A DNA stretch of 64,000 nt. It comes from an uncultured cyanobacterium (GTDB lineage Bacteria > Cyanobacteriota > Cyanobacteriia > CAKZMO01). Below the pieces are notes generated by a model. That model saw nothing but the letters and a program-made list of their open reading frames with translations, had not been told where the DNA came from and did not search any database. Positions within the stretch are counted from its first letter, which is position 1. Every line of letters begins with the position of its first letter. The stretch spans positions 65,705 to 129,704 of the forward strand of contig CAVRCJ010000003.1 of assembly GCA_963719515.1 (NCBI GenBank), in the 5' to 3' direction. Made by a program: the position numbers and the translations under genes. Positions 22,258 through 46,353 of the stretch are shown here, piece after piece.

Positions 22258-24552
22258 CTATGGGCTGGCAGCATCCTTAATCAGTCTGGCAATTTTGACC
22301 AGTGCGGCATCTTGCTCGGGCTTGCTGAGGCTGGCGAGAGGGCGATTTGGGGGGTGTGCGGCCTGGTACTTTTCGATGTCGCTGTCTTCGTAGGTGCTGT
22401 AGCTGATGGGCACCCAAATGATGGTTAGTCCCTCGCGCTCAGCGGCGTCGAGCAGCGGGGGCAGCTCTTTTTCGGCAATGAAGTCTGAGGCGAGGAAATC
22501 TTGACTGACCAGCAGGACGGCGACTTTGGCGGTAGCTAGGGCATGGTCGATTTCTTTACGCCATTCGGTGCCGGGCTGAATTTGAGTGTCGTCCCATTTT
22601 GTAATTGCGCCTTTACGCATCATGGGCTTGAGGAAGGTCTGCAGCTTTTTTAGCCATTCGACATCTTGGTGACTGTAGCTGACGAAAACTTTGTCGCGGA
22701 CTGGCTTTGCTGCTGGCATGGGTGGGCCGATAACATCATCAATGAGCGATCGCACATCCACCATTTCATAGCTTTTATCGCACTCAACCTTTTCGCGCCG
22801 GTCCGACAAGCGCTGCCGCAGTTTGTCGAGCGGGTACAGATGGGGGTTTTGAGTACCTTGGCAGATAGCGCAATTACAGGGCACCAGGGTCTTGTACTGT
22901 AGACGTTCGTAGCCGTGGTGAATCTTTTCAAACTCGTGGTTGATTATGGTCAGCAGCTCTTTTTTTCGCTTTCCTGAAACGCGAATGTGAATCTGGCGCT
23001 GGTTATACCGTTCGATCACTTCAGCGCGGGCCTCATCTTTCAGCAGCACCAGACCGCTTTTCCAAACCAGCCGCTGCTCCTCAATGTACCGGTGCATCTC
23101 CACAATGAACCGTGTCACCATGCCCTTGGGCATAAATTCGTAGGCGTAGCGCAGGATGAGGTTCTGATTCTCGTCCCAGACGTAGTCCGGCTGCTCCACC
23201 GGCAGCAGGTTAGGCGCAATGTATGTCTCGGGATCGTTAGGAATCTCGTAGCAGAGCTTGAAGTTGATCATCAGCTGCAGCAGCTCATCGCGCATGTCGG
23301 CGTACTGGCGATCGCTCCAGATTTGGTTGAGCTGAGCGCGGCTGAAGCGACCCTGACTGTTGACCACTTCCTTTGTATCTAGAACGCGATACACCGCCGC
23401 AGTACCCCATTCCGGCTTGAGGATGATCACACGCTTGAGCAGGGGATCGTTTTGGAAATGGAGGCAGACACCCAAATCGTGGAGGTAGTCGCTGAGCTGA
23501 AGCTGGTCATCGCGGTTGTCAAAGCCGTTGCTCTCACAAATTTTGAAGTATTCGTCCAGAGAGATATAATCGCGGGAGTCCATCTCTAGGGTTCGCCGCA
23601 CGTCTACCCACTTTCGCGGCAGCGGAGCCCCAACGTGGTCAAGCTGGCTGGCGTAGCGCTGAATGGTTGTCACCAACTCTCCTAGAGCGCGATTGGTGGC
23701 CAGGTTTGTGGCTAGAATCTCCTTCAGGTTAAGAAACTCTCCCCGCAGCTCTCGCTCGTTGACCTGGCAGATGCGCTCCTGCTTTTCGTTCTTGATAATC
23801 AAAATAGGGCTGCTGTTGCTGAGCAGGTCCACAATGCTGAGCCAGTAGTAGAGGTCGGTATTGTCCTGCCGGGTATCTACGACGAGGACGTAGAGGGAGC
23901 GCTTGGTGAGGAAGAACTGATGGGTAGCGTGGTAGATTTCCTGACCGCCGAAGTCCCAGATATTGAGGCGGAAGGGTGGTTTACCCTCCAGCGGAAAGTC
24001 CCAGCGAATGACGTCAATACCCTCGGTGGAGGTTTCCTTTTTATCTAAGACGTAGTTTCTGTCTTCAATCTTTTTAGCCAGCGAGGTCTTGCCTGCGCCG
24101 CCTTCGCCCACAATTAGGAGCTTGGCCTCGTAGAGGTAGTCCTGCCCTTGCTCTAGCTGCTGACGGCAGTAGTTTAGGATTGCTTCTGTGCCTTTGCTGA
24201 CTATTTCCGGTGGTGGGCTCGTTAGCGGGTTGCTTCTGAGGGAAAGCGATTGGAGGTTGGTGAGCTGGCCAATTTCCGGCGGCAGGCTCGTTAGCTGGTT
24301 GCCGCTGAGGTGAAGCGATTGGAGGCTGGTGAGCTGGCCAATTTCCGGCGGCAGGCTCGTTAGCTGGTTGCCGCTGAGGGAAAGCGATTGGAGGCTGGTG
24401 AGCTGGCCAATTTCCGGCGGCAGGCTGGTGAGCTCACACTCCGAAAGATTTAGCTCTGCCCTTTGATCAGCTGCAGCTTTCTCTATCAGCTGCGCAATGA
24501 ACTGCTGGCCTTGAAGCGCTAAGCGAATTTCTTTGTCTAGTCTGTCAATCAT
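22258..24552 (-). CDS. ROCO-type protein: LRR - Roc GTPase - COR - C-terminal TIR domain
   Basis: 764 aa. It has four 23-aa LRRs (LTSLQSLSLSGNQLTSLPPEIGQ). Roc G1 is LIVGEGGAGKTSL and G3 is WDFGGQE. A long COR-like region follows (RKWVDVR, LHDLGVCLHF, ILKPEWGTAAVYRVLD). The last ~145 aa form a TIR (KVFVSYSHQDVEWLKKL, AVLLVSQDFLASDFIAEKEL). Confidence 0.85.
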   Translation of the reverse strand: MIDRLDKEIRLALQGQQFIAQLIEKAAADQRAELNLSECELTSLPPEIGQLTSLQSLSLSGNQLTSLPPEIGQLTSLQSLHLSGNQLTSLPPEIGQLTNLQSLSLRSNPLTSPPPEIVSKGTEAILNYCRQQLEQGQDYLYEAKLLIVGEGGAGKTSLAKKIEDRNYVLDKKETSTEGIDVIRWDFPLEGKPPFRLNIWDFGGQEIYHATHQFFLTKRSLYVLVVDTRQDNTDLYYWLSIVDLLSNSSPILIIKNEKQERICQVNERELRGEFLNLKEILATNLATNRALGELVTTIQRYASQLDHVGAPLPRKWVDVRRTLEMDSRDYISLDEYFKICESNGFDNRDDQLQLSDYLHDLGVCLHFQNDPLLKRVIILKPEWGTAAVYRVLDTKEVVNSQGRFSRAQLNQIWSDRQYADMRDELLQLMINFKLCYEIPNDPETYIAPNLLPVEQPDYVWDENQNLILRYAYEFMPKGMVTRFIVEMHRYIEEQRLVWKSGLVLLKDEARAEVIERYNQRQIHIRVSGKRKKELLTIINHEFEKIHHGYERLQYKTLVPCNCAICQGTQNPHLYPLDKLRQRLSDRREKVECDKSYEMVDVRSLIDDVIGPPMPAAKPVRDKVFVSYSHQDVEWLKKLQTFLKPMMRKGAITKWDDTQIQPGTEWRKEIDHALATAKVAVLLVSQDFLASDFIAEKELPPLLDAAEREGLTIIWVPISYSTYEDSDIEKYQAAHPPNRPLASLSKPEQDAALVKIARLIKDAASP
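24204..24440 (-). repeat. 69-bp near-identical tandem repeats encoding the LRR units
   Basis: The unit atttccggcggcaggctcgttagctggttgccgctgagg(t/g)(g/a)aagcgattggaggctggtgagctggcca is repeated about 3.4 times inside the ROCO-TIR CDS. Confidence 0.9.
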
Positions 24553-32257: not shown

Positions 32258-33187
32258 TTAGTTCAGTCGCCCGAACTCGTCCATAGTAATCTGCTGAAAG
32301 CGTCCTACCATCGGGATTTCGTCTTGCTCGCTTTGAGCGATGTTGCTGTAAAGACGATTTATAGTCCGCTGTCCGTCTAGGGTTACCTTGAGATAGCGCA
32401 GGCCCTGTTGAATATAGGGCTCGACGCTATAGCGATAAAATTCCGGGTAGCTATTTAGCATGTCTTGAGGGCAACGGTATCCCAGCGCTTGAGCCGTCCC
32501 GGTTTCTCGCATCTCTGCAAGCAGAAGAGGAAGCTTGGCGAGGTAAGCCGGATCTGCAAGCTGACCAATTAGATCGGCGGCGCGGACCAGACCGGGGTAG
32601 TTTTGGGTGTTCTGATAGGGCTGCTCAGCGGGAACCGGAAAGCGAGTAAATTCGATGGCGGTTTTAACCCTGTCGGCGTCAATGCTGACGGATGCGAGCC
32701 GCTCTTCGACCACCATCTGCCCGCGCTTCACGTGATAGGGCGTTAAGCTCGCATCCGTAGCGTTGGGGTTGAGCTGCACCGCGGCGTCTCCGGTCACGTA
32801 GCAATTTTTACGAACCTGATCGCCCTGGCAGGCTCCTTTGATGTAGCCCACATCGTGGCACATTAAGGCCGTAGTCACCTCAAGCCAGTCTTGACGGCTA
32901 ACATTGCTCTCTAGTTGGTGCTTGCCTTCTAAAATTTGATGGCCAACGAGAATCACGGCGATCGTGTGTTCTAGGTTGTGGTAAGGTGCATCAGTCCATG
33001 CAATAATAGGCAAGATTTCATCAGTAATGTTGTCAATCAACGTTACATCAGAGGTCAGGGTAGGGCCGTACATACGCTGATAGTTTTTCTTGATGGCGTA
33101 GCGGCATTGGCTAATGCTTACACGAGCGTAAGCGGATTGCGAGCATTGAGCTGCATCTAATTGAGCTGCATCTAAAACGAATTGCAT
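32258..33187 (-). CDS. HD-domain metalloprotein with class-I-PDE-like motif pattern
   Basis: Motifs are APYHNLEHTIAV, ALMCHDVGYIKG and LVRAADLIGQLADP. The start is at the ATG at 33187, preceded by GGAGG. The ORF track extends to 33277. Confidence 0.65.
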   Translation of the reverse strand: MQFVLDAAQLDAAQCSQSAYARVSISQCRYAIKKNYQRMYGPTLTSDVTLIDNITDEILPIIAWTDAPYHNLEHTIAVILVGHQILEGKHQLESNVSRQDWLEVTTALMCHDVGYIKGACQGDQVRKNCYVTGDAAVQLNPNATDASLTPYHVKRGQMVVEERLASVSIDADRVKTAIEFTRFPVPAEQPYQNTQNYPGLVRAADLIGQLADPAYLAKLPLLLAEMRETGTAQALGYRCPQDMLNSYPEFYRYSVEPYIQQGLRYLKVTLDGQRTINRLYSNIAQSEQDEIPMVGRFQQITMDEFGRLN

Positions 33188-33633
33188 TGTCTGCCTCCTG
33201 CATATCAGGGTTTTCGGGTTGTGAGGTAAAGGTGCGACGCACTTGGCATAGTGGCTTAGCTGCCATCGGTTTGGCACAGTAATTCACTAACGCAAGGTGC
33301 GATCGCCGATGGCGGCAGCTTGGAACTGTAACCCCTGGTTGCGGGCTGAGCTGCACCCTTGGTTTAAAAAGAAACGCTCTGGGAGTCGGGATGACTTACC
33401 ACAGCGTGACGATCCGCTAATGCGCTAGCTGGGACTTATCTCAGCTGGCGATATCAGCTCATGTCGGTATTAAAGCGCATCGATACCTGCGTTCCGGACG
33501 AAGGCATCCAAACTTACTTCAAACTCGTTGATAACTTATAGCCGTTCTACTACGCGACCGACTTGTGTAGGCCTTATCGAGATACGCTGTTGCTTCTTAT
33601 ACAATCAAAAGTCGTTGCAGGCAGGTTGAACCC

Positions 33634-34950
33634 ATGACTCGAGCACCTCGATCACGTAGGATTCGTAGCGAATGTATCGAGCAGGTTAAGCGAGCGTTGC
33701 TCATGCAGGGCTATGCCCGGCAGGTCGATTTGGCAAGCGACGTGAAGCTTTCGTTGACAACCGTCAACAAATTCTTGACCGGTAAACGAGTGGACCAGTG
33801 GAATTTTCTTGAGCTTTGCCGGTATCTCAACGTTGATACAGCGACAATCGCGGCCCTAGAAAACGAAGACGTTGGAACTGACGGAGATGTTCCCACAGAA
33901 GAGCCCCTCGCGGGTGATTTAGACCTAGCCATCGATGAAGAGGCCTTGAACGACTATGTTGAACGACCGCCTTTAGAGAAAGCTTGCTGCAATACACTTC
34001 TACAGCCTGGCGCTCTAGTACGAATCAAAGCGCCGAGCCACATGGGTAAGACATCGCTTTTGCGGTACGCTCTGTTTCAGCTTCAAGAGCAAAAGCAGGA
34101 ATTTCAGACAGCCCTCGTCAATTTTCATATGGTCGGGGCCGCAGACTTTGAGAGCCTAGATTCGTTCCTACGGTGGTTCTGCATTAGCGTTGGGCAGCGG
34201 CTCCAGCGTCGCAACCGACTAGAAGAATTGTGGAATAGTCAGCTTTTAGCGCCCAAAGAAAACTGTACGCAGTATTTTGAGCAATATTTGCTTGCTGAGC
34301 AAACCAGACCGCTAATTTTGTGTCTAGACCAAGTGGATCGTATCTTGAAAGATCCTCAATCGGAGATTGTTCACGAATTCTTGAGTCTTTTGCGCGCTTG
34401 GCATGAGCGCGCCAAGATTGAGAAGCGCTGGGCAGTTATGCGTCTAGTTCTTCTGTATTCGACGGAGGTTTACCTTCCTATGCGGGTAAATCAATCCCCC
34501 TTTAATGTGGGTGAACCTATTGAACTGATGGAGTTTACCCCAAAGCAGGTCGAAGCGCTGGCCGAGAATCATGACGTCATCCTCGATCAAGCGCGGCTCC
34601 GACGGCTGTTCGATATGGTAGGCGGTCATCCTTATATGTTAGAAAAAGCCTTCGCCTACCTCAAAAGCCACGATCAAGACGTTTTCGAAACGCTTTTGGA
34701 GCTAGCGCCGACGCAGGCGGGAATTTATAACAATCATCTGCGCGATCACTGGACAGCGCTCCAAAGCAGTTCTGAGTTGAGCGGTACGTTAAAGCGCATT
34801 ATCGACGTTGATGGCCCTCTACTCATCGACCCTAGTCAAGCCTATCAGCTGTACAGTCGAGGTTTGATCAAGTTCCAGGGAAACGAAGTTGTCGTACGCT
34901 GCCGTCTCTATCAGCAGTACTTTGCTAGCCAGCTCAAGCTTAATTTTTAG
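33634..34950 (+). CDS. HTH domain + AAA-like (AAA_35-type) NTPase protein
   Basis: 438 aa. The N-terminal HTH is QVDLASDVKLSLTTVNKFLTGKRV. It is followed by YVERPPLE, GALVRIKAPSHMGKTSLL (P-loop), ILCLDQVDRI (Walker B-like), LLRAWHE, SPFNVGEPIEL and GGHPYML, which are typical of the cyanobacterial AAA-like domain family. Confidence 0.7.
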   Translation: MTRAPRSRRIRSECIEQVKRALLMQGYARQVDLASDVKLSLTTVNKFLTGKRVDQWNFLELCRYLNVDTATIAALENEDVGTDGDVPTEEPLAGDLDLAIDEEALNDYVERPPLEKACCNTLLQPGALVRIKAPSHMGKTSLLRYALFQLQEQKQEFQTALVNFHMVGAADFESLDSFLRWFCISVGQRLQRRNRLEELWNSQLLAPKENCTQYFEQYLLAEQTRPLILCLDQVDRILKDPQSEIVHEFLSLLRAWHERAKIEKRWAVMRLVLLYSTEVYLPMRVNQSPFNVGEPIELMEFTPKQVEALAENHDVILDQARLRRLFDMVGGHPYMLEKAFAYLKSHDQDVFETLLELAPTQAGIYNNHLRDHWTALQSSSELSGTLKRIIDVDGPLLIDPSQAYQLYSRGLIKFQGNEVVVRCRLYQQYFASQLKLNF

Positions 34951-35006
34951 AGGGCTCTCAAGGTTTTACATTTATTCTTTTCTTCAATTTTTCGGGTTGA
35001 TTCATC

Positions 35007-36421
35007 ATGGTTTCAGCATCCCTCTACCAATATCAAGTGGGAGGATCTCTTCCCGCCGACGCCCCAAGCTATGTCGAGCGTCAAGCTGACCACGAGCTAT
35101 ATCAGGCGCTGAAGGCAGGCGAGTTTTGCTATGTCTTGAACTCTCGCCAAATGGGCAAGTCGAGCCTTCGCGTTCGAACCATACAGAAGCTCAAGGCAGA
35201 TGGCCTTGTCTGTGCTGATATCGACGTCACGGCGATTGGAACGCGAGACGTCACACCCTTGCAGTGGTACGGTAGCCTGATTCAGTCCCTAATCCGGAGC
35301 TTCTGTCTACCGCTGAGCCTAACGGACTGGTGGCGCGATCACCAACAAATGACGCCACAGATGTGCTTCTGGGAATTTGTAGAGCACATTCTCTGGAACA
35401 CATTCCTCAGCGCGTTGTTATCTGCATTGATGAGATCGATAGCGTTTCCGATCTGGCCTTCAAAGATGATTTCCTAGCCTTGATTCGTGCTTGTTACAAC
35501 CAGCGTGCTGCCAACCACAACTTCGAGCGTCTCACCTTTGGTCTAATTGGATCAGCTGCACCGTCAGACCTAATCCAAAAGAAAACTCGCACACCGTTCA
35601 ACATTGGGCGGGCGATAGACCTCAGCGGTTTTACGTCTCAAGAGGCCGCTAAGCTAGCCCAGGGACTTGTAGGCAGCGCGGATAACCCGCCTATCGTTCT
35701 TCAAGAGGTCTTGAACTGGACTAAGGGACAACCCTTCCTTACTCAAAAGCTTTGCAAGATCGTCAAGACGCGATCGCCTCGAATAGCCATAGGTCAAGAG
35801 GCAGTGCAGGTCGGTCGCTTAGTAGAACGCTACATTATTCAGAACTGGGAATCTCAAGACGAGCCTGAGCACCTGAGAACCATTAAAGATCGGGCCTTGA
35901 GCGATAAACGACATACGAGTCAGCTGCTAGGGCTTTACGAAAACATTCTGCGTGACGGCAGTATTGCGGCTACTCAAAATCCTGAACAGATGGCACTCCA
36001 GCTGTCAGGACTAATTGTTAAGAGACAAGATCGGCTCAGCATTTATAACCGAATTTACCAGGCTGTGTTTGACCAAGGCTGGATCGATCAGGAGTTTCAA
36101 AATCTGAGACCCTATAGTGATGCTATTTGCGCATGGCAAAACTCGAATTATGACGATCGCGACTTACTAACTGGAGAAGCTCTTGATTATGCACTCGGCT
36201 GGGCAATCGACAAAAGTCTGAGTACTTTAGATTACAAGTTCTTGACTACTAGTCAAGAGCGTCGCGGCAGAGAATTTCAGAAAGATATCGAAGAGCTAAA
36301 TCAGCTGTTAGCCGAAACAGGATATTGGACTATGGAGCTGCAGGAAATTAAAGAGAGAAGTCTAGACCAGGCCAGTTCAGTGAGCACCATAAGACAGCCT
36401 TTCAAAGGCTACAACGCCTAG
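35007..36421 (+). pseudogene. Second AAA-like NTPase, frame-disrupted as assembled
   Basis: The N-terminus ([40 protein letters not shown]-loop) is in ORF 35007-35477. The continuation ([11 protein letters not shown] Walker B, RACYNQRA, RTPFNIGRAIDL, GQPFLTQKLC, LSGLIVK, RPYSDAICAWQ) is in ORF 35330-36421. The join needs one extra nucleotide near 35393. Confidence 0.7.
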
Positions 36422-37632
36422 TGTCTCACATGACTCCAGCCAGCTTTCGCGGAGTTGTTCCCACTCTGGAAAAAAACTTTAGCCTAATTAGTCAAACGCT
36501 GTCTATGGTAGATCAGATGATGGACAGTGGAGAGCTGGGCTCTGAATTTTATCGAGTCATAGAGCTAATTGCAATGAAAATTAGCGAATTTCTAAATGCC
36601 GATCGCACTAGTATATTTCTACTCAATGCAGACGCCAATGAACTGTGGTCTATAGCTGCTGAAGGAGAAAACGGTTCTTGGGAGAAGATTTGCGTTCTCC
36701 TGGGTGAGGGTATTGCTGGTCAAGTTGCTAAAACAAAGAAGTTCGACAATATTCCATTTGACTTTTATGATGATCCTCGCTCTAAAACAGCGAAGATATT
36801 CGATCAAAAAATGGACTACCGAACCTACACAATGGTTGCTATTCCTTTGCTGGATGAGCGGAAAAATTTAATTGCCGTAGCTCAGATTCTCAATAAGCAG
36901 AGACCTAATATAGACCCCTCAGCACCTTTACGGGAAAGAATCGACGAGAAAGGATTTAGCGAAAATGACGTCACAAAATTCCTGGGATTTGCACCTTCAA
37001 TCCAATCCGCTCTTAAATCTTTTCAGCTTCTTTACAAAACTGCTCAAAAGCAGCAAGCTGCTAAGGGATTGATGCGATCTATTCAGTCTTTGAGTCGAAG
37101 TAATTTTGACCTTGATAAGACATTGGCTTGCGTTATTGACGAAGCTGAAAAACTCATGAATGCCGATCGCAGCACGCTGTGGCTAATTGATAGAGCCCGT
37201 CAAGAGTTGTGGACAAAAATATCTGACGTAGACGGAATTATGCAAGAGCACCGTATTCCAATAAACGCTGGTTTTGTCGGCCAGGTCGCAACCACAGCCC
37301 AACCGCTCAATGTCCCATTTGACTTGTACGATGACCCCAATTCTGATACGGCTAAACAGACAGACCGTGCTACCGGATATCGGACCTGTAGTCTGCTCTG
37401 CATGCCGGTATTCAGCCCCAGCGGCGAACTGTTAGCCGTAACCCAGCTCGTTAACAAGAAGCGGTACGGTCATCCTTCAAACTACGATTCAGCGCAGTGG
37501 CCCCAGGTCCCAGACTGCTGGAAGGCTAGCTTCAACCCCACCGACCTCGAATTCATGGTGGCTTTCAATATTCAGGTCGGCATTGCGCTGCAAAATGCCT
37601 GGATCTTCAACAAAACCAACTATCAGCAGTAG
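36421..37632 (+). CDS. Tandem GAF-domain protein with no recognisable output domain
   Basis: 403 aa with two GAF-like halves (ADRTSIFLL..GIAG..AVAQILNKQ and ADRSTLWLI..GFVG..AVTQLVNKK). Each has an NK...F...D signature. The GTG start overlaps the upstream stop (TAGTG). Confidence 0.8.
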   Translation: MSHMTPASFRGVVPTLEKNFSLISQTLSMVDQMMDSGELGSEFYRVIELIAMKISEFLNADRTSIFLLNADANELWSIAAEGENGSWEKICVLLGEGIAGQVAKTKKFDNIPFDFYDDPRSKTAKIFDQKMDYRTYTMVAIPLLDERKNLIAVAQILNKQRPNIDPSAPLRERIDEKGFSENDVTKFLGFAPSIQSALKSFQLLYKTAQKQQAAKGLMRSIQSLSRSNFDLDKTLACVIDEAEKLMNADRSTLWLIDRARQELWTKISDVDGIMQEHRIPINAGFVGQVATTAQPLNVPFDLYDDPNSDTAKQTDRATGYRTCSLLCMPVFSPSGELLAVTQLVNKKRYGHPSNYDSAQWPQVPDCWKASFNPTDLEFMVAFNIQVGIALQNAWIFNKTNYQQ

Positions 37633-37926: not shown

Positions 37927-38682
37927 TCATTTTGATAAATTGGGTGCCACCACCTCAGGGAAGCTCTTAAAGTTGTGCTGCACCCAATCCATGCCCACTT
38001 CATTATTGAGCTTAATGCCCTTGGGGGTATCTGGATAGATTTTCCTTAGAATATCCGCATCTTGGTCTACAGCGGCCTTACCGAACTTGAGGTAGGCCTT
38101 GCTCAGGGGTTTGAGGGCGGGATGTCTGGCCTGACCAAACAGCAAAACGTATGTCCTGGTCCGGTTTTCTGCCTCTGGCACAAAAAAGTGGCACTGCGCG
38201 AGCTCACCCAGCGGCGACTCTGCGCGAAAGATCACTAGGGAAGGAAAATGATTTTCCAGATGGGCCTTGAGCGTGGTTGGCAGCAGAAACAAATCCGGCT
38301 GCCTCAGCTTTTCTGCCAGGCTATAGGGAGCCGTGGGCATATCGTAAAAGGCTTCGGACGTATACCCGTTGTCGATAAATCGGCGAAAAACCGCCGTAAT
38401 GCGAAACAAGTCCCGGTGGGTTCCATTTTGGTGATTGTAGTCGTGCATATTCAGCAGCATTGTGAGCAAATCGGTCTCGACGCTCTGGTCTGCCGTATGG
38501 CCGATGAAGTCATAATCGGCTGCGATCGCCTCCATGACGTCAGGAATCGGAATTTTGGGCTCGTGCTCACCGTAGGAGCAAATGAAATCCCTCTGAATCG
38601 TCAGCGCCAGAGGATTCAGCTGAGGCAGCGCTTTTACCCAACGCGGCAAATTTTTCAGTCCATCGACGAAAGCATGACCCAA
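37927..38682 (-). CDS. Hypothetical protein, possibly a truncated oxygenase-type catalytic domain
   Basis: 251-aa ORF that is open only from a TTG. FFVPEAENRTRTYVLLF and VDQDADILRKI resemble the C-terminal part of VanA/PaO-type Rieske oxygenases, but no Rieske domain is present. This is a weak call. Confidence 0.35.
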   Translation of the reverse strand: MGHAFVDGLKNLPRWVKALPQLNPLALTIQRDFICSYGEHEPKIPIPDVMEAIAADYDFIGHTADQSVETDLLTMLLNMHDYNHQNGTHRDLFRITAVFRRFIDNGYTSEAFYDMPTAPYSLAEKLRQPDLFLLPTTLKAHLENHFPSLVIFRAESPLGELAQCHFFVPEAENRTRTYVLLFGQARHPALKPLSKAYLKFGKAAVDQDADILRKIYPDTPKGIKLNNEVGMDWVQHNFKSFPEVVAPNLSK

Positions 38683-38910
38683 GAGGCGATCGCCTTTATG
38701 GCGAGCATTTTCCTAGAGCGTCGTCCTACGTTGGGGCAGACGCAGTGTGATTTACTGGCCGAGGTCTGCGTCCACAGCGGCAACGCGGTAGTTCTAGCCG
38801 CCCTGCGCAGCGCTGAGCTAGAGCACCGCCAGCAGTTGGTTCAACAAATCGAGGCCCTCCTCGTGTCGTATTTGGAGCCGCATTTGGGGGATGACCAGTC
38901 GAACTATGTA

Positions 38911-39042
38911 ATGAAAGTAATGATTTGCCCTCACTGCCAATCTAGCCAGCTGTCTAAAAACGGACGCCGCCGGGGTAAGCAGTGCTACCTCTGCAAGGAC
39001 TGCGGCAAACAGTTTGTGGAGAATTCGTCGCGCCTGCAGTAG
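38911..39042 (+). pseudogene. IS1-family transposase N-terminal zinc-finger fragment
   Basis: The 43-codon ORF MKVMICPHCQSSQLSKNGRRRGKQCYLCKDCGKQFVENSSRLQ* matches the InsA-type CxxC..CxxC finger. The rest of the transposase is absent. Confidence 0.4.
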
Positions 39043-39180
39043 AGAGGCGCGATCGCCCACCCTTCAGCTCGCCACATCATAAACTTTAGGGTCATTTTTT
39101 CTACGCTGACCCCGTCTGGGTATATCGTTCAGGTATGCGGTGCGCTGCGCCGAATGTAACAGTTTCAAAGAGCTAGCCCC

Positions 39181-39831
39181 ATGACCTCAGAATCTACTCC
39201 CATTGAGCATCAGGACGTTCCCGAAGCGCATCAGGGGCTCCACAGCTTTTTGTATTCCTCTGATGATGAGCATGGCGTAAATTCCGCCGGCACCGCGCCG
39301 CCCGTTCAAGGTGCCGAAACGCCCGTTGACGTTGAGGCTTGGTGCGACGACGCTCAAAACGCTAAGGTCGCCGGAGTCTACGCCGTGCTGGATAGCGATC
39401 GCCAGCCCCAGTTCATCGGCTACTCCCGCAACGTTACCCGCTCCCTGCGCGGCCACCTAGCCCAAAAAGGCGACGTCTGCGCTCTGGTGCGAGTGCAGCC
39501 CTTCCAGTTTCCCAAGCGAGACGCCATGGAAGCCCTGCGGGACGAGTGGGTGGCCGCGCTGCCTAGCCCGCCCCCCGGCAACGTAGACGAGGCTTGGGCC
39601 GGGACAATTCGAGAAGCCCAGGCTCAGACGATGTCTGCCGCTGAGCGTCAGGCCTATGAAGAGAAAAAGCTGAAGCTGCGCCGCGCTATGGCGGACGGAT
39701 CGCTGTCGCAGGATGAAGTGAAGACGCAGGCGGAAGCGCGACAGGATTTGGCGGCGGCGGTCAATGATGACAACTGGAGCGCCGTGATTCGCGAACAAAC
39801 TCAAGAAACGCGGTCAACTGGCCTCGATTAG
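39181..39831 (+). CDS. Conserved protein with a GIY-YIG-like N-terminal motif
   Basis: 216-aa ORF. GVYAVLDSDRQPQFIGYSRNVTRSLRGHL resembles the GIY-YIG core. The C-terminal part is charged and helical. Confidence 0.45.
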   Translation: MTSESTPIEHQDVPEAHQGLHSFLYSSDDEHGVNSAGTAPPVQGAETPVDVEAWCDDAQNAKVAGVYAVLDSDRQPQFIGYSRNVTRSLRGHLAQKGDVCALVRVQPFQFPKRDAMEALRDEWVAALPSPPPGNVDEAWAGTIREAQAQTMSAAERQAYEEKKLKLRRAMADGSLSQDEVKTQAEARQDLAAAVNDDNWSAVIREQTQETRSTGLD

Positions 39832-40455
39832 TACAGATAGAGCATTCTTGGCGTGCTCCGCTCCATTCGAGTTTCCCTCAATCGTAGCGACAAGACTGGC
39901 CCCACCGATCAAGAGCAAATACTGCTGTGAGAAGATCTCAGGGTTTTTGACGCCGGCTTCCGCAGCTAGGCGCATCACATACTGGCGGATAGACTCTCTC
40001 ACATTCACGGAAGTTTGATGCGCCGGATGGGCTGCATCTGCAAGCTCCAAGACAGCGTTGATGAACGGGCAGCCTCGAAAGCTCGGGTCAGCGTACCAAT
40101 TTTGCAGCACATCAAAGGTGGCCAGCAGCCGCTCTTTAGCGATGTTGCCGCGATCTTCAACGGCAGACTCAAACCACTGGAGCCACTGCACCGCCCGGTA
40201 TTCATCACCATGAGGTCGAAGCCACTTTGGTTTCAGGAAAACCGAAGCAACAGGGTGTGAGAACCGTATTTTGTAGCCTTCATTTTGGTTTGTACTGCTC
40301 AGCGCAGTAGGGGAATCTCGTCTGGTTACCCAAAAAATAGTCTTGCATAATCGAGTTGTTGAGACGTTAAAACCTGTAGCGTAAGCCCAACTTTGCGATC
40401 GCTTCACCGCTTCGTCTCTTGCAACGACTACTATCCAAAGAGACAAAACCAGCAT
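39814..40455 (-). pseudogene. TetR/AcrR-family regulator remnant (C-terminal ligand domain intact, HTH region degenerate)
   Basis: ERLLATFDVLQNWYADPSFRGCPFINAVLELAD...AGVKNPEIFSQQYLLLIGGA is a typical TetR C-domain. The expected N-terminal HTH is not readable in this frame, although pieces such as EAIAKLGL appear in another frame. Confidence 0.5.
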
Positions 40456-42431: not shown

Positions 42432-43727
42432 TCATCTACAACCTGCACTCACTGGGCTAAAGACTGGCGCAGGTTGCCACGCTCTTGCCGTATCTAGCAG
42501 GTATTTTTCGACAAAGGTTTCTAGGCCAGATCGAGAAACATGCTCCATTGTGAAAATGTGCGTATAATCTCCCTCCGCAGCACTATAGCGAGGCAAGTGG
42601 TACTCTCGGGCAAGTTGAGGAGACGGTGCCGGTAGAACGGCACAGGGGGAATGGCTATTGCACCAGGCTGAAACGCCATTCTGGCGCAGTAAATCGACCA
42701 ACCACGCTGCTTTATCAATTACCCGCTGAGTTCTTTTACGCATCTCTGAATGGCCTAGATGCTTTAACTTCATCAGGGTGATGAAGGGAGACAGTCCATC
42801 GCGGGAGCCGCCAAGGGTGGTGTCGTACGAGGAATAATGCTCAGCGTAGAGAGAAGGCGGCAAGTTCTGGAGGCTACTTTTTCGGGCAATGAAAAGCGAG
42901 CCAGGTAAAGGAATACCCAGTCTTTTGTGAAAGCTGACGGATAGAGAATCTGCCTCCAAGATCCGAAAGTCTAATTTAATGGGTTCCCCCATTAAGAAAG
43001 GGGTAACCATTCCCCCTAGGGCCGCATCAATGTGCAAGTGGTAATCATCAGGTTCAATACCACAGCCAGAGATGACCTGAAGCAGCTCTTCAGAATTGTC
43101 GTAGGCCCCTTTGGTTACAGAGCCGGAACAAAACGCAAAGATGTAGTTTTTTCTATTGAGCGCTTTTAGCTGCTCTTCAAGATGGTCCGGCAGCATCCTC
43201 CCCTGCAAATCCGTCTTTATCTTGACAAGCTCTTTGCATCTAGTGACAACTGCAGCTTTCTCAAAGCTATTGTGAGATTCTTCAGAAATGATAATGGTCG
43301 GTTCTTCAAACCGCCTCATGCCTAAATGCACGCCATGCATGTTTGAGAGCGTTGACCCAGGATTGTAGTATCCCCAACTATTATCTGAGCTTAGATGCAG
43401 TAGAGAAGAAACCAAGCTGACCAACTCTCTCTCATAGTCAAAAGTCACTAAATGTCCGCCTTGGCCGGAGAAAGGATCTCCTAAATTGTTAAGGGTGTGC
43501 GATAAGAGCGGAGCAAACATCTGACAATCTCGAACATCCTGGTTAATTTGGATACCAAAGCACTTATGCTGCTCTTGGTCCAAAAAATGCAAGAATGCCT
43601 TAACTTCTTGCTGAACTCGATCGAGGCTTAATCCTGGAAGAGCATCCATGGGCGATGAGAAGTTAGTTTTCAGAGCAATACATACCGCGAAAATATAATT
43701 CGCGTATACCGTGTTTTCTACAGTCAC
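42432..43727 (-). CDS. Group II PLP-dependent decarboxylase (histidine-decarboxylase-like)
   Basis: 431-aa ORF with SWGYYNPGSTLSNMHG, HIDAALGG, SVSFHKRLGIP (the PLP lysine) and GGSRDG. It has a GTG start. An ATG at residue 27 is an alternative. Confidence 0.8.
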   Translation of the reverse strand: MTVENTVYANYIFAVCIALKTNFSSPMDALPGLSLDRVQQEVKAFLHFLDQEQHKCFGIQINQDVRDCQMFAPLLSHTLNNLGDPFSGQGGHLVTFDYERELVSLVSSLLHLSSDNSWGYYNPGSTLSNMHGVHLGMRRFEEPTIIISEESHNSFEKAAVVTRCKELVKIKTDLQGRMLPDHLEEQLKALNRKNYIFAFCSGSVTKGAYDNSEELLQVISGCGIEPDDYHLHIDAALGGMVTPFLMGEPIKLDFRILEADSLSVSFHKRLGIPLPGSLFIARKSSLQNLPPSLYAEHYSSYDTTLGGSRDGLSPFITLMKLKHLGHSEMRKRTQRVIDKAAWLVDLLRQNGVSAWCNSHSPCAVLPAPSPQLAREYHLPRYSAAEGDYTHIFTMEHVSRSGLETFVEKYLLDTARAWQPAPVFSPVSAGCR

Positions 43728-44701: not shown

Positions 44702-46237
44702 TTAGCGATCGCTACTGAGTGGCTCAAGCTGAGACGAAACGGGCTGAGTCGTATCGACGGCATGAACGTAGGGCTGCTCGTCCGCAGTAAAGGACTCGAA
44801 CGTCTGTTTCTCCATCACCTCTACCGTAGCATCTGCAATATCCTGCCGGGACCGGAGGCGATCGCTCCTCACGTCTTGGGGAGCCTCACAATGGACGATC
44901 TGTAGTGGCACCTGACGGGCCTTAGCCTCAGTTAGGATTGCGGATCGCTGGGCAGCGCGATCGTATTTGGCATCTAGAATCACAGAATACCCCGCGTCAA
45001 TCAGCTTAAACGCCAGGTCAGCGAGCCTAGCGTAGGTCTTCTGCGTCATTTCGGGGGTGTAAAGGCTATCGTCCCCCTTTTGCTGTAGAGGGACGCCGCC
45101 TAGATGCTTACGGACGGCGTCGGAGCGGATTTGAATGGCTCCGGTGTGAGCCGCTAACTCCCGGCCCACGGTGGATTTACCGCTGCCCGACAGCCCACTC
45201 ATCAGGGTGAGGGTACCCTGGCTCGGTTGAGCATAGCGCCAGGCCAGCCGGTAGTAGCGGGCGGCGGTGGCGGTGGCGGCCTGCTTGTCCTCGGCGGAGA
45301 CGCTGGGGTCGCCCAGCAGGAACGAGGTCACCTTGGCCCGCACGTAGGTTTGGCGGCTGACATAGAGGGGCAAGACTTGCAGGCCCTCCCAGTCTCCGGT
45401 TTGCTCGACGTAGGCGTTGAGGAACAGGGTGCTGAGGTCGGGCCGCTCTCCCGCCTCTAGGTCCATGACGATGTAGGCCACGTCGAACATGACGTCGACG
45501 TAGCGAAAGGACTCGTTGAACTCAATGCAGTCAAACAGCAGATACTGGTCTTGCCAGTAGCAAATATTGTTAAGATGCAGGTCGCCGTGGCACTCCCGAA
45601 TCCAGCCGTTGTCGATGCGCGAGCGGAACAGGGGAGCTTGCTGCTCAAAGAAGCGATCGGTGTAGGCGCGGGTGTCGTCGAACTGCTGCTGGGTTTGAGG
45701 ACCGCCAATGTACTGCTCCGTCTGGTCGTAGTTTTCGTCGATGGACTGCCGCACCTGGGCAACTTCGCCAAAGCTACGCACGTAGTCGCTGGAGGGGGCC
45801 GCCTGGTGGAACGCTGCAATCTTGCTGGCCAGCGTCTGGAGCTGCTCCGGCCCCAGTCCCCGCTCGAAGTAGCGGCTCAGCAGAGTGTCTTGGGGAAACT
45901 GCCGCATCTTGACGGCGTATTCGACGGGTTCCCCATCGCCGCCCAAGATGTAGCGATCGCCTTGTTGAGCGATAGGTAAAACTTCCAGGTAGATCTCAGG
46001 CGCGCCGCGCTGGTTAAGGCGCAGTTCTTCATGGCAAAAGTGCTTACGCCGGTCCAGAGTTGAATAGTTCAAAAAGCCAAAGTCTAAAGGCTTTTTCACC
46101 TTGTAGGCAAATTCCCCCGTCAGCAGAACGTAGGAAATATGGGTTTGTACAAGCTGAATCGGCGTTTGAACCGCATGACTGTAAAAGTCAGGGCTCAGCA
46201 TCTGCTCGATCAAGGCTGGCCTGGTCGTATCGCTCAT
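44702..46237 (-). CDS. Bifunctional aminoglycoside-phosphotransferase-like kinase / P-loop (AAA_33-type) ATP-binding protein
   Basis: The N-terminal APH-like fold has HGDLHLNNI. The C-terminal P-loop is MSGLSGSGKSTVGREL. The start is placed at the ATG at 46237 (MSDTTRP). The ORF track extends to 46288. Confidence 0.7.
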   Translation of the reverse strand: MSDTTRPALIEQMLSPDFYSHAVQTPIQLVQTHISYVLLTGEFAYKVKKPLDFGFLNYSTLDRRKHFCHEELRLNQRGAPEIYLEVLPIAQQGDRYILGGDGEPVEYAVKMRQFPQDTLLSRYFERGLGPEQLQTLASKIAAFHQAAPSSDYVRSFGEVAQVRQSIDENYDQTEQYIGGPQTQQQFDDTRAYTDRFFEQQAPLFRSRIDNGWIRECHGDLHLNNICYWQDQYLLFDCIEFNESFRYVDVMFDVAYIVMDLEAGERPDLSTLFLNAYVEQTGDWEGLQVLPLYVSRQTYVRAKVTSFLLGDPSVSAEDKQAATATAARYYRLAWRYAQPSQGTLTLMSGLSGSGKSTVGRELAAHTGAIQIRSDAVRKHLGGVPLQQKGDDSLYTPEMTQKTYARLADLAFKLIDAGYSVILDAKYDRAAQRSAILTEAKARQVPLQIVHCEAPQDVRSDRLRSRQDIADATVEVMEKQTFESFTADEQPYVHAVDTTQPVSSQLEPLSSDR

Positions 46238-46353
46238 AGAGACTGGGTCAAGATAACAAAAGCCAGGAAAATTCCCTGGCTTGGACATTATTGCACTGAT
46301 TGCAGCGCTACATGCATTGAAGCGTTAGAGGGGTGCGCTTAGAACTTCAGGCT

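Follow-up and report, generated by a model that had tools for sequence, protein, structure and literature searches.

A candidate split STAND-like, cyclic-nucleotide-responsive switch with a broken sensor gene in an uncultured cyanobacterium

A 64,000-nucleotide (nt) stretch of DNA from an uncultured cyanobacterium (lineage CAKZMO01; GenBank assembly GCA_963719515.1, contig CAVRCJ010000003.1, positions 65,705 to 129,704 of the forward strand; here called the window) carries at 33634-37632 an A+T-rich block that had been predicted from its letters alone to be a cassette of three genes: a helix-turn-helix (HTH) protein fused to an AAA-like NTPase, a second AAA-like NTPase and a tandem GAF protein. 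We find two genes there. Gene A encodes the HTH and a STAND-like NTPase of the AAA_35 family, and gene B encodes a second AAA_35 NTPase that continues into the GAF pair. Judged by gene order and domain content, the pair is the HTH/GAF-GAF flavour of a two-protein design that is widespread in cyanobacteria. Taken with a divergent neighbouring gene for a phosphodiesterase (PDE)-like HD protein, it has in our estimate an even chance of being a split STAND-like, cyclic-nucleotide-responsive transcription switch, the sensor subunit of which is inactivated in this genome. AAA_35 is among the most expanded and least understood families of the filamentous cyanobacteria, and the copy in the window, damaged as it is, nevertheless exposes a widespread and uncharacterised split-STAND design. 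The coding parts of the block are as follows, with lengths in amino acids (aa).

33634..34950, forward strand: gene A, 438 aa; HTH, disordered linker and type-A AAA_35 STAND-like NTPase.
35007..35393, forward strand: gene B fragment 1, frame 0; N-terminus of the type-B AAA_35 module with Walker A GKSS, ending at frameshift 1.
35393..36374, forward strand: gene B fragment 2, frame 2; Walker B IDEIDS, the remaining NTPase, winged-helix region and linker, ending at frameshift 2.
36376..37632, forward strand: gene B fragment 3 (gene 3 of the original prediction), frame 1; CyaB2-type tandem GAF.

The open reading frames (ORFs) first described, at 33634-34950 (438 aa), 35007-35477 and 35330-36421 (the two frames of gene 2) and 36421-37632 (403 aa), were all recovered, as were the 56 nt that separate gene 1 from gene 2, the TAGTG at 36419-36423 in which a stop and a start overlap, and every motif quoted from the translations (SHMGKTSLL, LDQVDR, SPFNVGEPIEL, GGHPYML, GQPFLTQKLC and two NK...F..D signatures). 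The division into three genes does not survive comparison with relatives. Orthologues of gene A (54-67% identity), on the independent contigs L004/5/6, L007/8 and L009, are each followed by one AAA_35-GAF-GAF gene of 872-898 aa, and the three downstream ORFs of the window align collinearly with that single gene; genes 2 and 3 of the original prediction are one gene in all relatives. The association of HTH NTPase, second NTPase and GAF domains is itself kept in other genomes. A frameshift had been suspected at 35393 and lies exactly there, one C having been lost from CTC-CTG between Walker A and Walker B. A second had been overlooked: at ~36375, in the linker, one base is missing in GGC-CAG relative to L094, the closest orthologue of gene B (75% protein identity, 73% nucleotide identity). 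No frame break interrupts the L094 gene at either site, and the window is a net 2 nt shorter. Upstream of the GTG at 36421, frame 1 reads EHHKTAFQRLQRLVSHMTPASF, which still matches the orthologues, and joining the three frames restores an 873-aa product. Thus gene 3 does consist of two GAF domains, but it is not a stand-alone gene; it is the C-terminal sensor of NTPase B, severed by a 1-nt deletion.

Neither frameshift site is a long homopolymer, each being one C lost from CC, and the other long ORFs of the window (up to 852 aa) are all intact, so two indels in 2.6 kb look like real inactivation. With one deletion between the Walker motifs and the other in the linker, gene B is most likely cut into three pieces by two 1-nt deletions and the sensor subunit is most likely non-functional here, while A and the HD gene are left intact. 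That gene 2 might be dead had been foreseen, and by the measure set at the time the sensor gene, broken twice, does look dead in this genome. Exact-sequence look-ups of the window proteins matched no record. The gene model and the two-gene architecture, read from the sequence and its alignments, are the parts of our account that we hold with high confidence.

Two other readings of the same ORFs have to be set against this one. The three-gene cassette might work as such, the linker frameshift being a natural fission that leaves a GAF-GAF protein translationally coupled through TAGTG, and the event at 35393 being a sequencing error. The second deletion does fall in a variable interdomain linker and is followed by a stop that overlaps a GTG, with an ATG 9 nt further on; a 400-aa GAF protein (P0001) is among the public gene calls for this genome, and stand-alone tandem-GAF proteins exist elsewhere (P0056 in L002). 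Yet the split occurs in no relative, the other frameshift falls within the NTPase, after Walker A and before Walker B, the nature of the two sites does not favour a sequencing error, and the rest of the window bears no sign of frequent indel errors, so that we regard a working cassette as quite improbable. An apparent parallel, P0101 in L001 (a '392-aa GAF domain protein'), was first taken by us as stand-alone and unlinked to AAA_35; that reading was withdrawn because an ORF and hidden Markov model (HMM) scan places it inside a 1151-codon frame encoding AAA_35 and four GAF domains (L001:7724-11176) that is preceded by an A gene. Some database entries of this kind may be truncated calls, and in annotation 'stand-alone tandem GAF proteins' beside AAA_35 genes can be pieces of a broken or mis-called fusion gene. 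Alternatively, both frameshifts might be assembly or consensus errors and gene B intact in the organism. Both events are single-base losses, and the protein of B has not diverged further from its orthologues than that of A (67% versus 62% identity to the L004 pair), so that any inactivation of B would be recent. Against this, the long ORFs are undamaged in the ~50 kb of other coding sequence of the window, neither site is of the long-homopolymer kind, and several other genes in the adjacent 2.5 kb are decayed, which suggests a locally degenerating region; an intact gene B has, we judge, only a small chance.

Gene A encodes, as had been proposed, an HTH fused to an AAA-like NTPase. Its NTPase module (aa 108-431) matches AAA_35 (PF14516) at E=1e-113 and 380 bits, the cut-off being 27 bits; the gene B fragments also exceed it (34 and 62 bits), and the intact B orthologues are annotated AAA_35+GAF. 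The HTH, at ~aa 12-76 (33667-33861), is of the XRE type, with weak Pfam matches to HTH_31 and HTH_26 and a match to HipB at E=0.005 in a profile search, and can be called XRE/HipB-like. NCBIfam returned nothing for A or B. When gene A was compared with the PDB, a single-sequence search found no match and a profile search found only the HipB-like HTH and RecA P-loop noise. The AlphaFold2 (AF2) model of A (pLDDT 90) was more informative: its best Foldseek match is the archaeal AAA+ protein SSO1545 (2FNA, E=1e-8), and further matches are ORC/Cdc6, NRC4, Sr35, RPP1, Avs3/4, Dark and CED-4 (E=1e-8 to 1e-5), with template-modelling (TM) scores of only 0.35-0.5. This set, NLR resistosomes included, agrees with the earlier description of the NTPases as STAND-like, and on the strength of the model the AAA_35 module of A is a STAND/ORC-like nucleotide-binding oligomerisation module.

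Both NTPases have a Walker A motif of the GK[ST] form (GKTS in A, GKSS in B). Set beside the hhhhD[DE] pattern of Walker B in STAND NTPases, B has IDEID and A has LDQVD. The glutamine in the Walker B motif of A is found in all six A proteins of the clade, where the wider family has glutamate (LDEVD). In AAA+ proteins a change from glutamate to glutamine at this position usually leaves ATP binding in place and slows hydrolysis. The exchange therefore suggests that A binds ATP but is poor at hydrolysing it, in which case B would be the turnover subunit.

The sensor end of gene B is the part with the clearest relatives. GAF-A (~36544-37021) and GAF-B (~37108-37591) both lie in fragment 3, and the translation of each has an NK..F..D(E)-type motif. 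The pair matches the cAMP-bound tandem GAF of Anabaena CyaB2 (1YKD) from end to end (E=3.4e-121, query 16-400 to chain 4-384); the next matches are the GAF domains of PDE2, PDE5 and PDE10. The prediction of a cyclic-nucleotide-type sensor thus holds at the level of class, and the non-nucleotide GAF classes do not fit better, given that the closest match is cAMP-bound CyaB2. From this likeness, a cyclic nucleotide monophosphate (cNMP) is reasonably likely to be the ligand of the GAF pair. Fusions of AAA_35 with GAF are common, and include forms with PAS (~1005 aa, 53-55% identity) and forms with four GAF domains (~1150 aa); one relative of B, P0337 (1283 aa), continues into PAS and an adenylate cyclase domain.

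The arrangement seen in the window recurs across cyanobacteria. A motif scan for type-B NTPases, with one genome per species, gave more than 600 stretches, from which 80 loci were kept, and separate HMMs were built for A (the gene-1 type) and for B (the gene-2 type). The two types separate cleanly, since the models score 400-770 bits on their own type and 35-90 bits on the other. A lies directly upstream on the same strand for 63 of 85 evaluable B genes, and five more B genes follow another B in A-B-B arrays; expressed by gene, ~74-80% of B genes have an A directly upstream and ~70% of A genes have a B directly downstream. The gap is 100 nt or less in 31 of the 63 pairs, and start and stop codons frequently overlap or almost touch. 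The same association appears when loci are chosen by A: a metagenome scan for close A orthologues found only the already known contig and otherwise paralogues, and among 20 such A-selected loci B is directly downstream in 14; the same is true for two of three A proteins picked from a homologue list.

Domain content divides between the partners in a consistent manner. At their N-termini, 60 A proteins carry CHAT (18), TIR (15), protein kinase (7) and HTH or sigma-70 r4 types (~10), and more rarely trypsin (3), cyclase (3), caspase (1) or GerE (1), while about half of 46 B proteins end in WD40. Where A is of the HTH type, its B partner has WD40, PG-binding, periplasmic-binding-protein (PBP), GUN4 or GAF-GAF domains. 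Among all the proteins examined, every output belongs to an A and every sensor to a B. The HTH of the window pair accordingly sits on A and its GAF-GAF on B, and the single-polypeptide effector-NTPase-sensor layout of the STAND class is not found here. Such ordered A/B pairs allow a testable model, a split NLR-like hetero-oligomeric switch, to replace the label 'AAA-like domain protein'; on gene order and complementary domains, we favour an A-B heteromer with some reserve.

A number of individual loci deserve mention. In L016, L039, L041, L042, L068 and L071 a conserved ORF of ~210 aa (MVQLIQGKDITLAQLIDEFGL...FFSEWQQDLPEL) stands between A and B, and in L089 a Uma2-like ORF takes the same position; these inserted ORFs are probably selfish insertions, and they could be a third component. 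In L091, a contig of Sphaerothrix gracilis, a caspase-TIR-AAA_35 A gene is followed after 3 nt by a B-type gene of 1284 aa with no recorded Pfam match, and the neighbours of the pair (dnd-associated, HNH, MazG_C, UDG, Uma2 and NACHT-WD40 genes) resemble a defence island. In L090, from Dulcicalothrix desertica, an unpaired A-type protein with an N-terminal PF26355 (HTH_VMAP-M9) domain adjoins a divergent Crp-family gene (cNMP_binding and HTH_Crp_2), with an AAA_35+CHASE2 gene ~6 kb away from it; the Crp-family neighbour is a hint of further cNMP links in the AAA_35 family.

The HTH/GAF-GAF pair of the window has a third companion, which is transcribed away from gene A across an intergenic region with conserved features of its own.

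32258..33277, reverse strand: Npun_R2479-family HD protein, divergent from gene A; translation probably begins at the ATG at 33187.
33278..33633, no strand: divergent intergenic region with conserved non-coding blocks GTATTAAAGCG at 33467, GCGTTCCGGA at 33489 and TTATACAATCAAAA at 33597.
33577-33605, ~28 nt upstream of the start of A: promoter-like site TCGAGA-17-TACAAT, from a promoter scan.

Each of the four distinct relatives in the 872-aa clade has the HD gene next to A in divergent orientation, and the other 80 loci lack it; HD, A and B are the only genes that the window shares with L004/L007. The HD protein scores 319 bits against NCBIfam NF045583, where the cut-off of 400 is not reached. 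The top 32 PDB matches of its AF2 model (pLDDT 89.6) in Foldseek are all class I PDE catalytic domains (~300 aligned columns, TM ~0.5, E 9e-4 to 4e-2), other HD folds having E>0.26, and a PDB profile search returns PDE10A, 8A, 9A and 5 at E ~0.03; matches to PPR proteins in the profile search were set aside as repeat artefacts. The metal-ligand motifs YHNLEHT, CHDVGY and RAAD are intact. Three concordant lines (Pfam, PDB profile and predicted fold) thus point, weakly, to a phosphodiesterase-like protein. The HD family is also tied to the AAA_35 system by independent fusions: a B-type AAA_35 with three HD domains (P0361), a caspase with two (P0362) and several of HD with GAF. The metal-binding His/Asp residues are gone from the tandem HD copies of P0361 (L093:136-4257) and P0362 but are retained where the domain stands alone or is fused to GAF, and from these residues the fused tandem copies look like inactive modules in a sensor position, or 'decoys'. 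In L093 the P0361 gene is followed by parA/parB.

Aligned over the four orthologous regions, the intergenic blocks are invariant even though the flanking proteins are only 54-67% identical. We consider the blocks and the promoter-like site to be candidate promoter/operator elements. An Rfam scan of 31.5-41 kb found nothing relevant, and had no match in the intergenic region.

These observations can be assembled into a model in which the locus is a three-part module, made up of the PDE-like HD protein, A (HTH and type-A AAA_35) and B (type-B AAA_35 and CyaB2-type tandem GAF). A and B would be the halves of a split STAND/NLR-like switch, A providing the output domain and B the input domain. On binding a cyclic nucleotide, for which cAMP is the likeliest candidate, the GAF pair would free the NTPase of B for nucleotide exchange, upon which B would nucleate a hetero-oligomer with A through the two AAA_35 modules. 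The HTH domains of A, clustered in this way, would bind DNA at the invariant blocks between A and the HD gene and regulate the operon, the PDE-like gene or both, creating a feedback on the nucleotide. That the transcriptional output is directed onto this locus or the HD gene is the most tentative of these steps, and we hold it as a possibility rather than an expectation. More speculative still, and in our opinion doubtful, is a wider proposal: that HD-A-B is a previously undescribed cyclic-nucleotide homeostat, in which expression of a class-I-like PDE is set by an NLR-style ATPase pair that reads cAMP or cGMP through CyaB2-type GAFs, and that in general hundreds of such 'binary NLR' pairs, one partner joining an effector to a nucleotide-binding oligomerisation domain (NOD) and the other a NOD to a sensor, form a signalling and immunity platform of filamentous cyanobacteria, some with catalytically dead PDE-like copies as sensors or decoys. 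For experiment the HTH/GAF/PDE-like flavour is the simplest point of entry, since a likely ligand (cAMP or cGMP), a likely DNA target (the 350-nt intergenic region) and a likely regulated enzyme can all be named.

Several points weigh against the switch model. Heteromer, ligand and DNA target alike are inferred from the order of the genes and the logic of their domains, and no experimental work on any AAA_35 protein was found in the literature searched. Pairing is not obligatory, because ~20-30% of A or B genes are unpaired. The downstream Asp of LDQVD could still support hydrolysis by A. Adjacency of the HD gene is limited to the 872-aa clade with its four distinct relatives, and the relatives that contain PAS or four GAF domains are without it. 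The likeness of the HD protein to PDEs is moderate at the level of fold (TM ~0.5, E ~1e-3), and its match to PDEase_I (PF00233), at 15.1 bits and E=0.019, covers profile positions 1-46 only and lies below the 24.8-bit cut-off. An inverted-repeat search found no shared dyad operator in the four orthologous intergenic regions. Finally, both frameshifts are read from the assembled sequence.

The pair might instead be an NLR-like anti-phage or conflict system, in which B senses a cyclic nucleotide generated by infection and the HTH of A starts a toxic or defensive programme. The original prediction saw a resemblance to conflict or signalling systems, and the wider family does supply grounds for it: A proteins with CHAT (18/60), TIR (15/60), trypsin and caspase domains, frequent WD40 sensors on B proteins, the caspase-TIR pair of L091 in its defence-island-like surroundings, a block of atypical composition in varying contexts, and the placing of MNS-clade STANDs in predicted counter-invader systems (PMC8195603). 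Several features count against it in this flavour. Its output is an HTH with no killing domain, its neighbours are housekeeping genes (PRPP synthase, ycf12, PfkB, GatC), it has no match in PADLOC-DB v2 (the best E values, 0.018-0.05, are noise), viral contigs contain no relatives, its GAF pair most resembles the cAMP sensor of CyaB2, a housekeeping one, and HTH-type A proteins are paired with metabolite-type sensors (PBP, GUN4). A conflict role is for these reasons unlikely here. It might also be argued that A and B act independently and that their adjacency is an old tandem duplication, A being a MalT-like regulator that answers some cue through its own NTPase and B an ATPase regulated by GAF that serves a different role. 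MalT and other single-chain STAND regulators act as homo-oligomers and provide a precedent, 20-30% of A or B genes are solitary, and Walker A is kept in both proteins. But A and B are distinct paralogue classes, as their cross- and self-HMM scores show (35-90 versus 400-770 bits), in a constant order with A always first, their accessory domains are strictly complementary (outputs on A, sensors on B), and in many pairs the two coding sequences overlap at the stop and start codons or almost meet there. Independent action is, to our mind, distinctly less probable than the split switch, and has a rather slim chance.

The remark that no defined function is known for these families agrees with the literature searched, with a text search that ignored the underscore in AAA_35, and a 2026 census of STAND proteins does not mention the AAA_35 family under the terms tried. 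AAA_35 is probably the 'Npun2340/2341 family' of MNS-clade STAND NTPases, named in PMC8195603 (citing Leipe 2004); SSO1545 as the best structural match of A and the agreement with the domain fusions cited there are indirect hints of this. In both families helical and winged-helix modules come after a P-loop NTPase, the numbers have expanded in cyanobacteria, and TIR, caspase, kinase, EAD or HTH domains occur at the N-terminus. Members of the MNS/Npun2340-type clade are described as single-chain effector-STAND-sensor proteins (PMC8195603), and the A/B split seen here differs from that arrangement.

The nearest described two-gene design is nSTAND2, an operon of two genes whose products are both STAND NTPases, predicted to form a hetero-multimeric ring, with a variable effector on one partner (Kaur et al. 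2021, eLife, PMC8195603); one partner has eroded NTP-binding motifs, the effectors are GT4 or HEPN, and the family is said to be nearer to the CR-ATPases. The likeness lies in the two-gene STAND pair and in the variable effector on one partner. In contrast to nSTAND2, both partners here keep Walker A, the Walker-B change from Glu to Gln is in A only and in this clade only, the effectors and sensors are of other kinds, and the family is AAA_35. Because the P-loop is kept in both partners and no GT4 or HEPN domain occurs among the 60 A proteins, the defining features of nSTAND2 are absent.

We take the name of the Npun2340/2341 family to come from two neighbouring genes of N. punctiforme, and SSO1545 presumably belongs to the same clade. 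In the sensor/helper NLR pairs (NAIP-NLRC4 and the paired NLRs of plants) a ligand-bound sensor NOD nucleates oligomerisation of an effector NOD, and in MalT oligomerisation that depends on ligand and ATP is coupled to DNA binding by an HTH. The likeness of the A/B pair to both is a functional analogy and does not extend to any specific relationship in sequence. The HTH of the single-chain MalT is C-terminal and of the LuxR type; that of gene A is N-terminal, of the XRE type, and on a chain separate from the sensor. Taken together, the CyaB2-type GAF pair, the B relative with PAS and cyclase, the PDE-like neighbour and its GAF-fused relatives amount to the parts list of the GAF-PDE enzymes (PDE2/5/6/10/11). 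In CyaB1/CyaB2 and the PDEs the GAF domains are on the cyclase or the PDE, while here the GAF pair is on a STAND-like NTPase and the PDE-like protein is a separate gene. This GAF/PDE-like link bears on the origin of the partnership of GAF with class I PDE in animals.

The A+T-richness noted at the outset is real, the spot counts of 19 and 37 G+C being exact. The cassette has 48.1% G+C, compared with 56.3% for the rest of the window, and is its lowest 4-kb stretch (elsewhere such stretches average 56.4%, with a standard deviation of 2.4%, and none falls below 51.3%). G+C at third codon positions (GC3) is 0.46-0.53 in its genes and 0.63-0.78 in most neighbouring genes. Decay of a pseudogene was considered as the source of the low G+C and rejected, because the intact L094 orthologue is equally A+T-rich relative to its flanks (GC3 0.48 versus 0.69-0.83). 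The pair in L004, L007 and L009 has a host-like GC3 of 0.62-0.66. The right-hand context differs between the window, L004/L007 and L094, and composition and context together indicate that the block probably moves or is replaced among related cyanobacteria, always with the HD gene. An 'acquired' origin is plausible: the A+T-richness relative to the host, here and in L094, and the lineage-specific contexts speak for it, but the HD companion is constant, the composition in L004, L007 and L009 is host-like, and the block has no mobility genes of its own. A scan of viral contigs found no relatives of the block. The remnants said to border it are real: a fragment of VanA_C, the C-terminal parts of two TetR genes, both lacking the HTH, and a zinc finger of the IS1 type at ~38926-39021. 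The zone that contains them, immediately downstream of the cassette, looks like one of local decay or rearrangement.

37927-40455 (2.5 kb): remnant zone; VanA_C fragment (reverse strand), TetR_C_15 fragment and IS1/IS1595 zinc finger in one ORF (forward strand), 216-aa ORF, and TetR_C_13 fragment without HTH (reverse strand).

Three further genes of the window, all on the reverse strand, may be recorded. At 22258-24552, ~10 kb upstream of the cassette, lies a gene for a 764-aa LRR-Roc-COR-A-COR-B-TIR protein; the LRR-Roc-COR architecture is the 'AP-GTPase' type of conflict system of Kaur et al. 2021 (PMC8195603), here with a TIR effector. Unrelated to the switch are a gene at 44702-46288, for an APH-like kinase fused to an AAA_33/zeta-toxin-like P-loop kinase, and a pyridoxal-dependent decarboxylase gene of low G+C content (47%) at 42432-43727.

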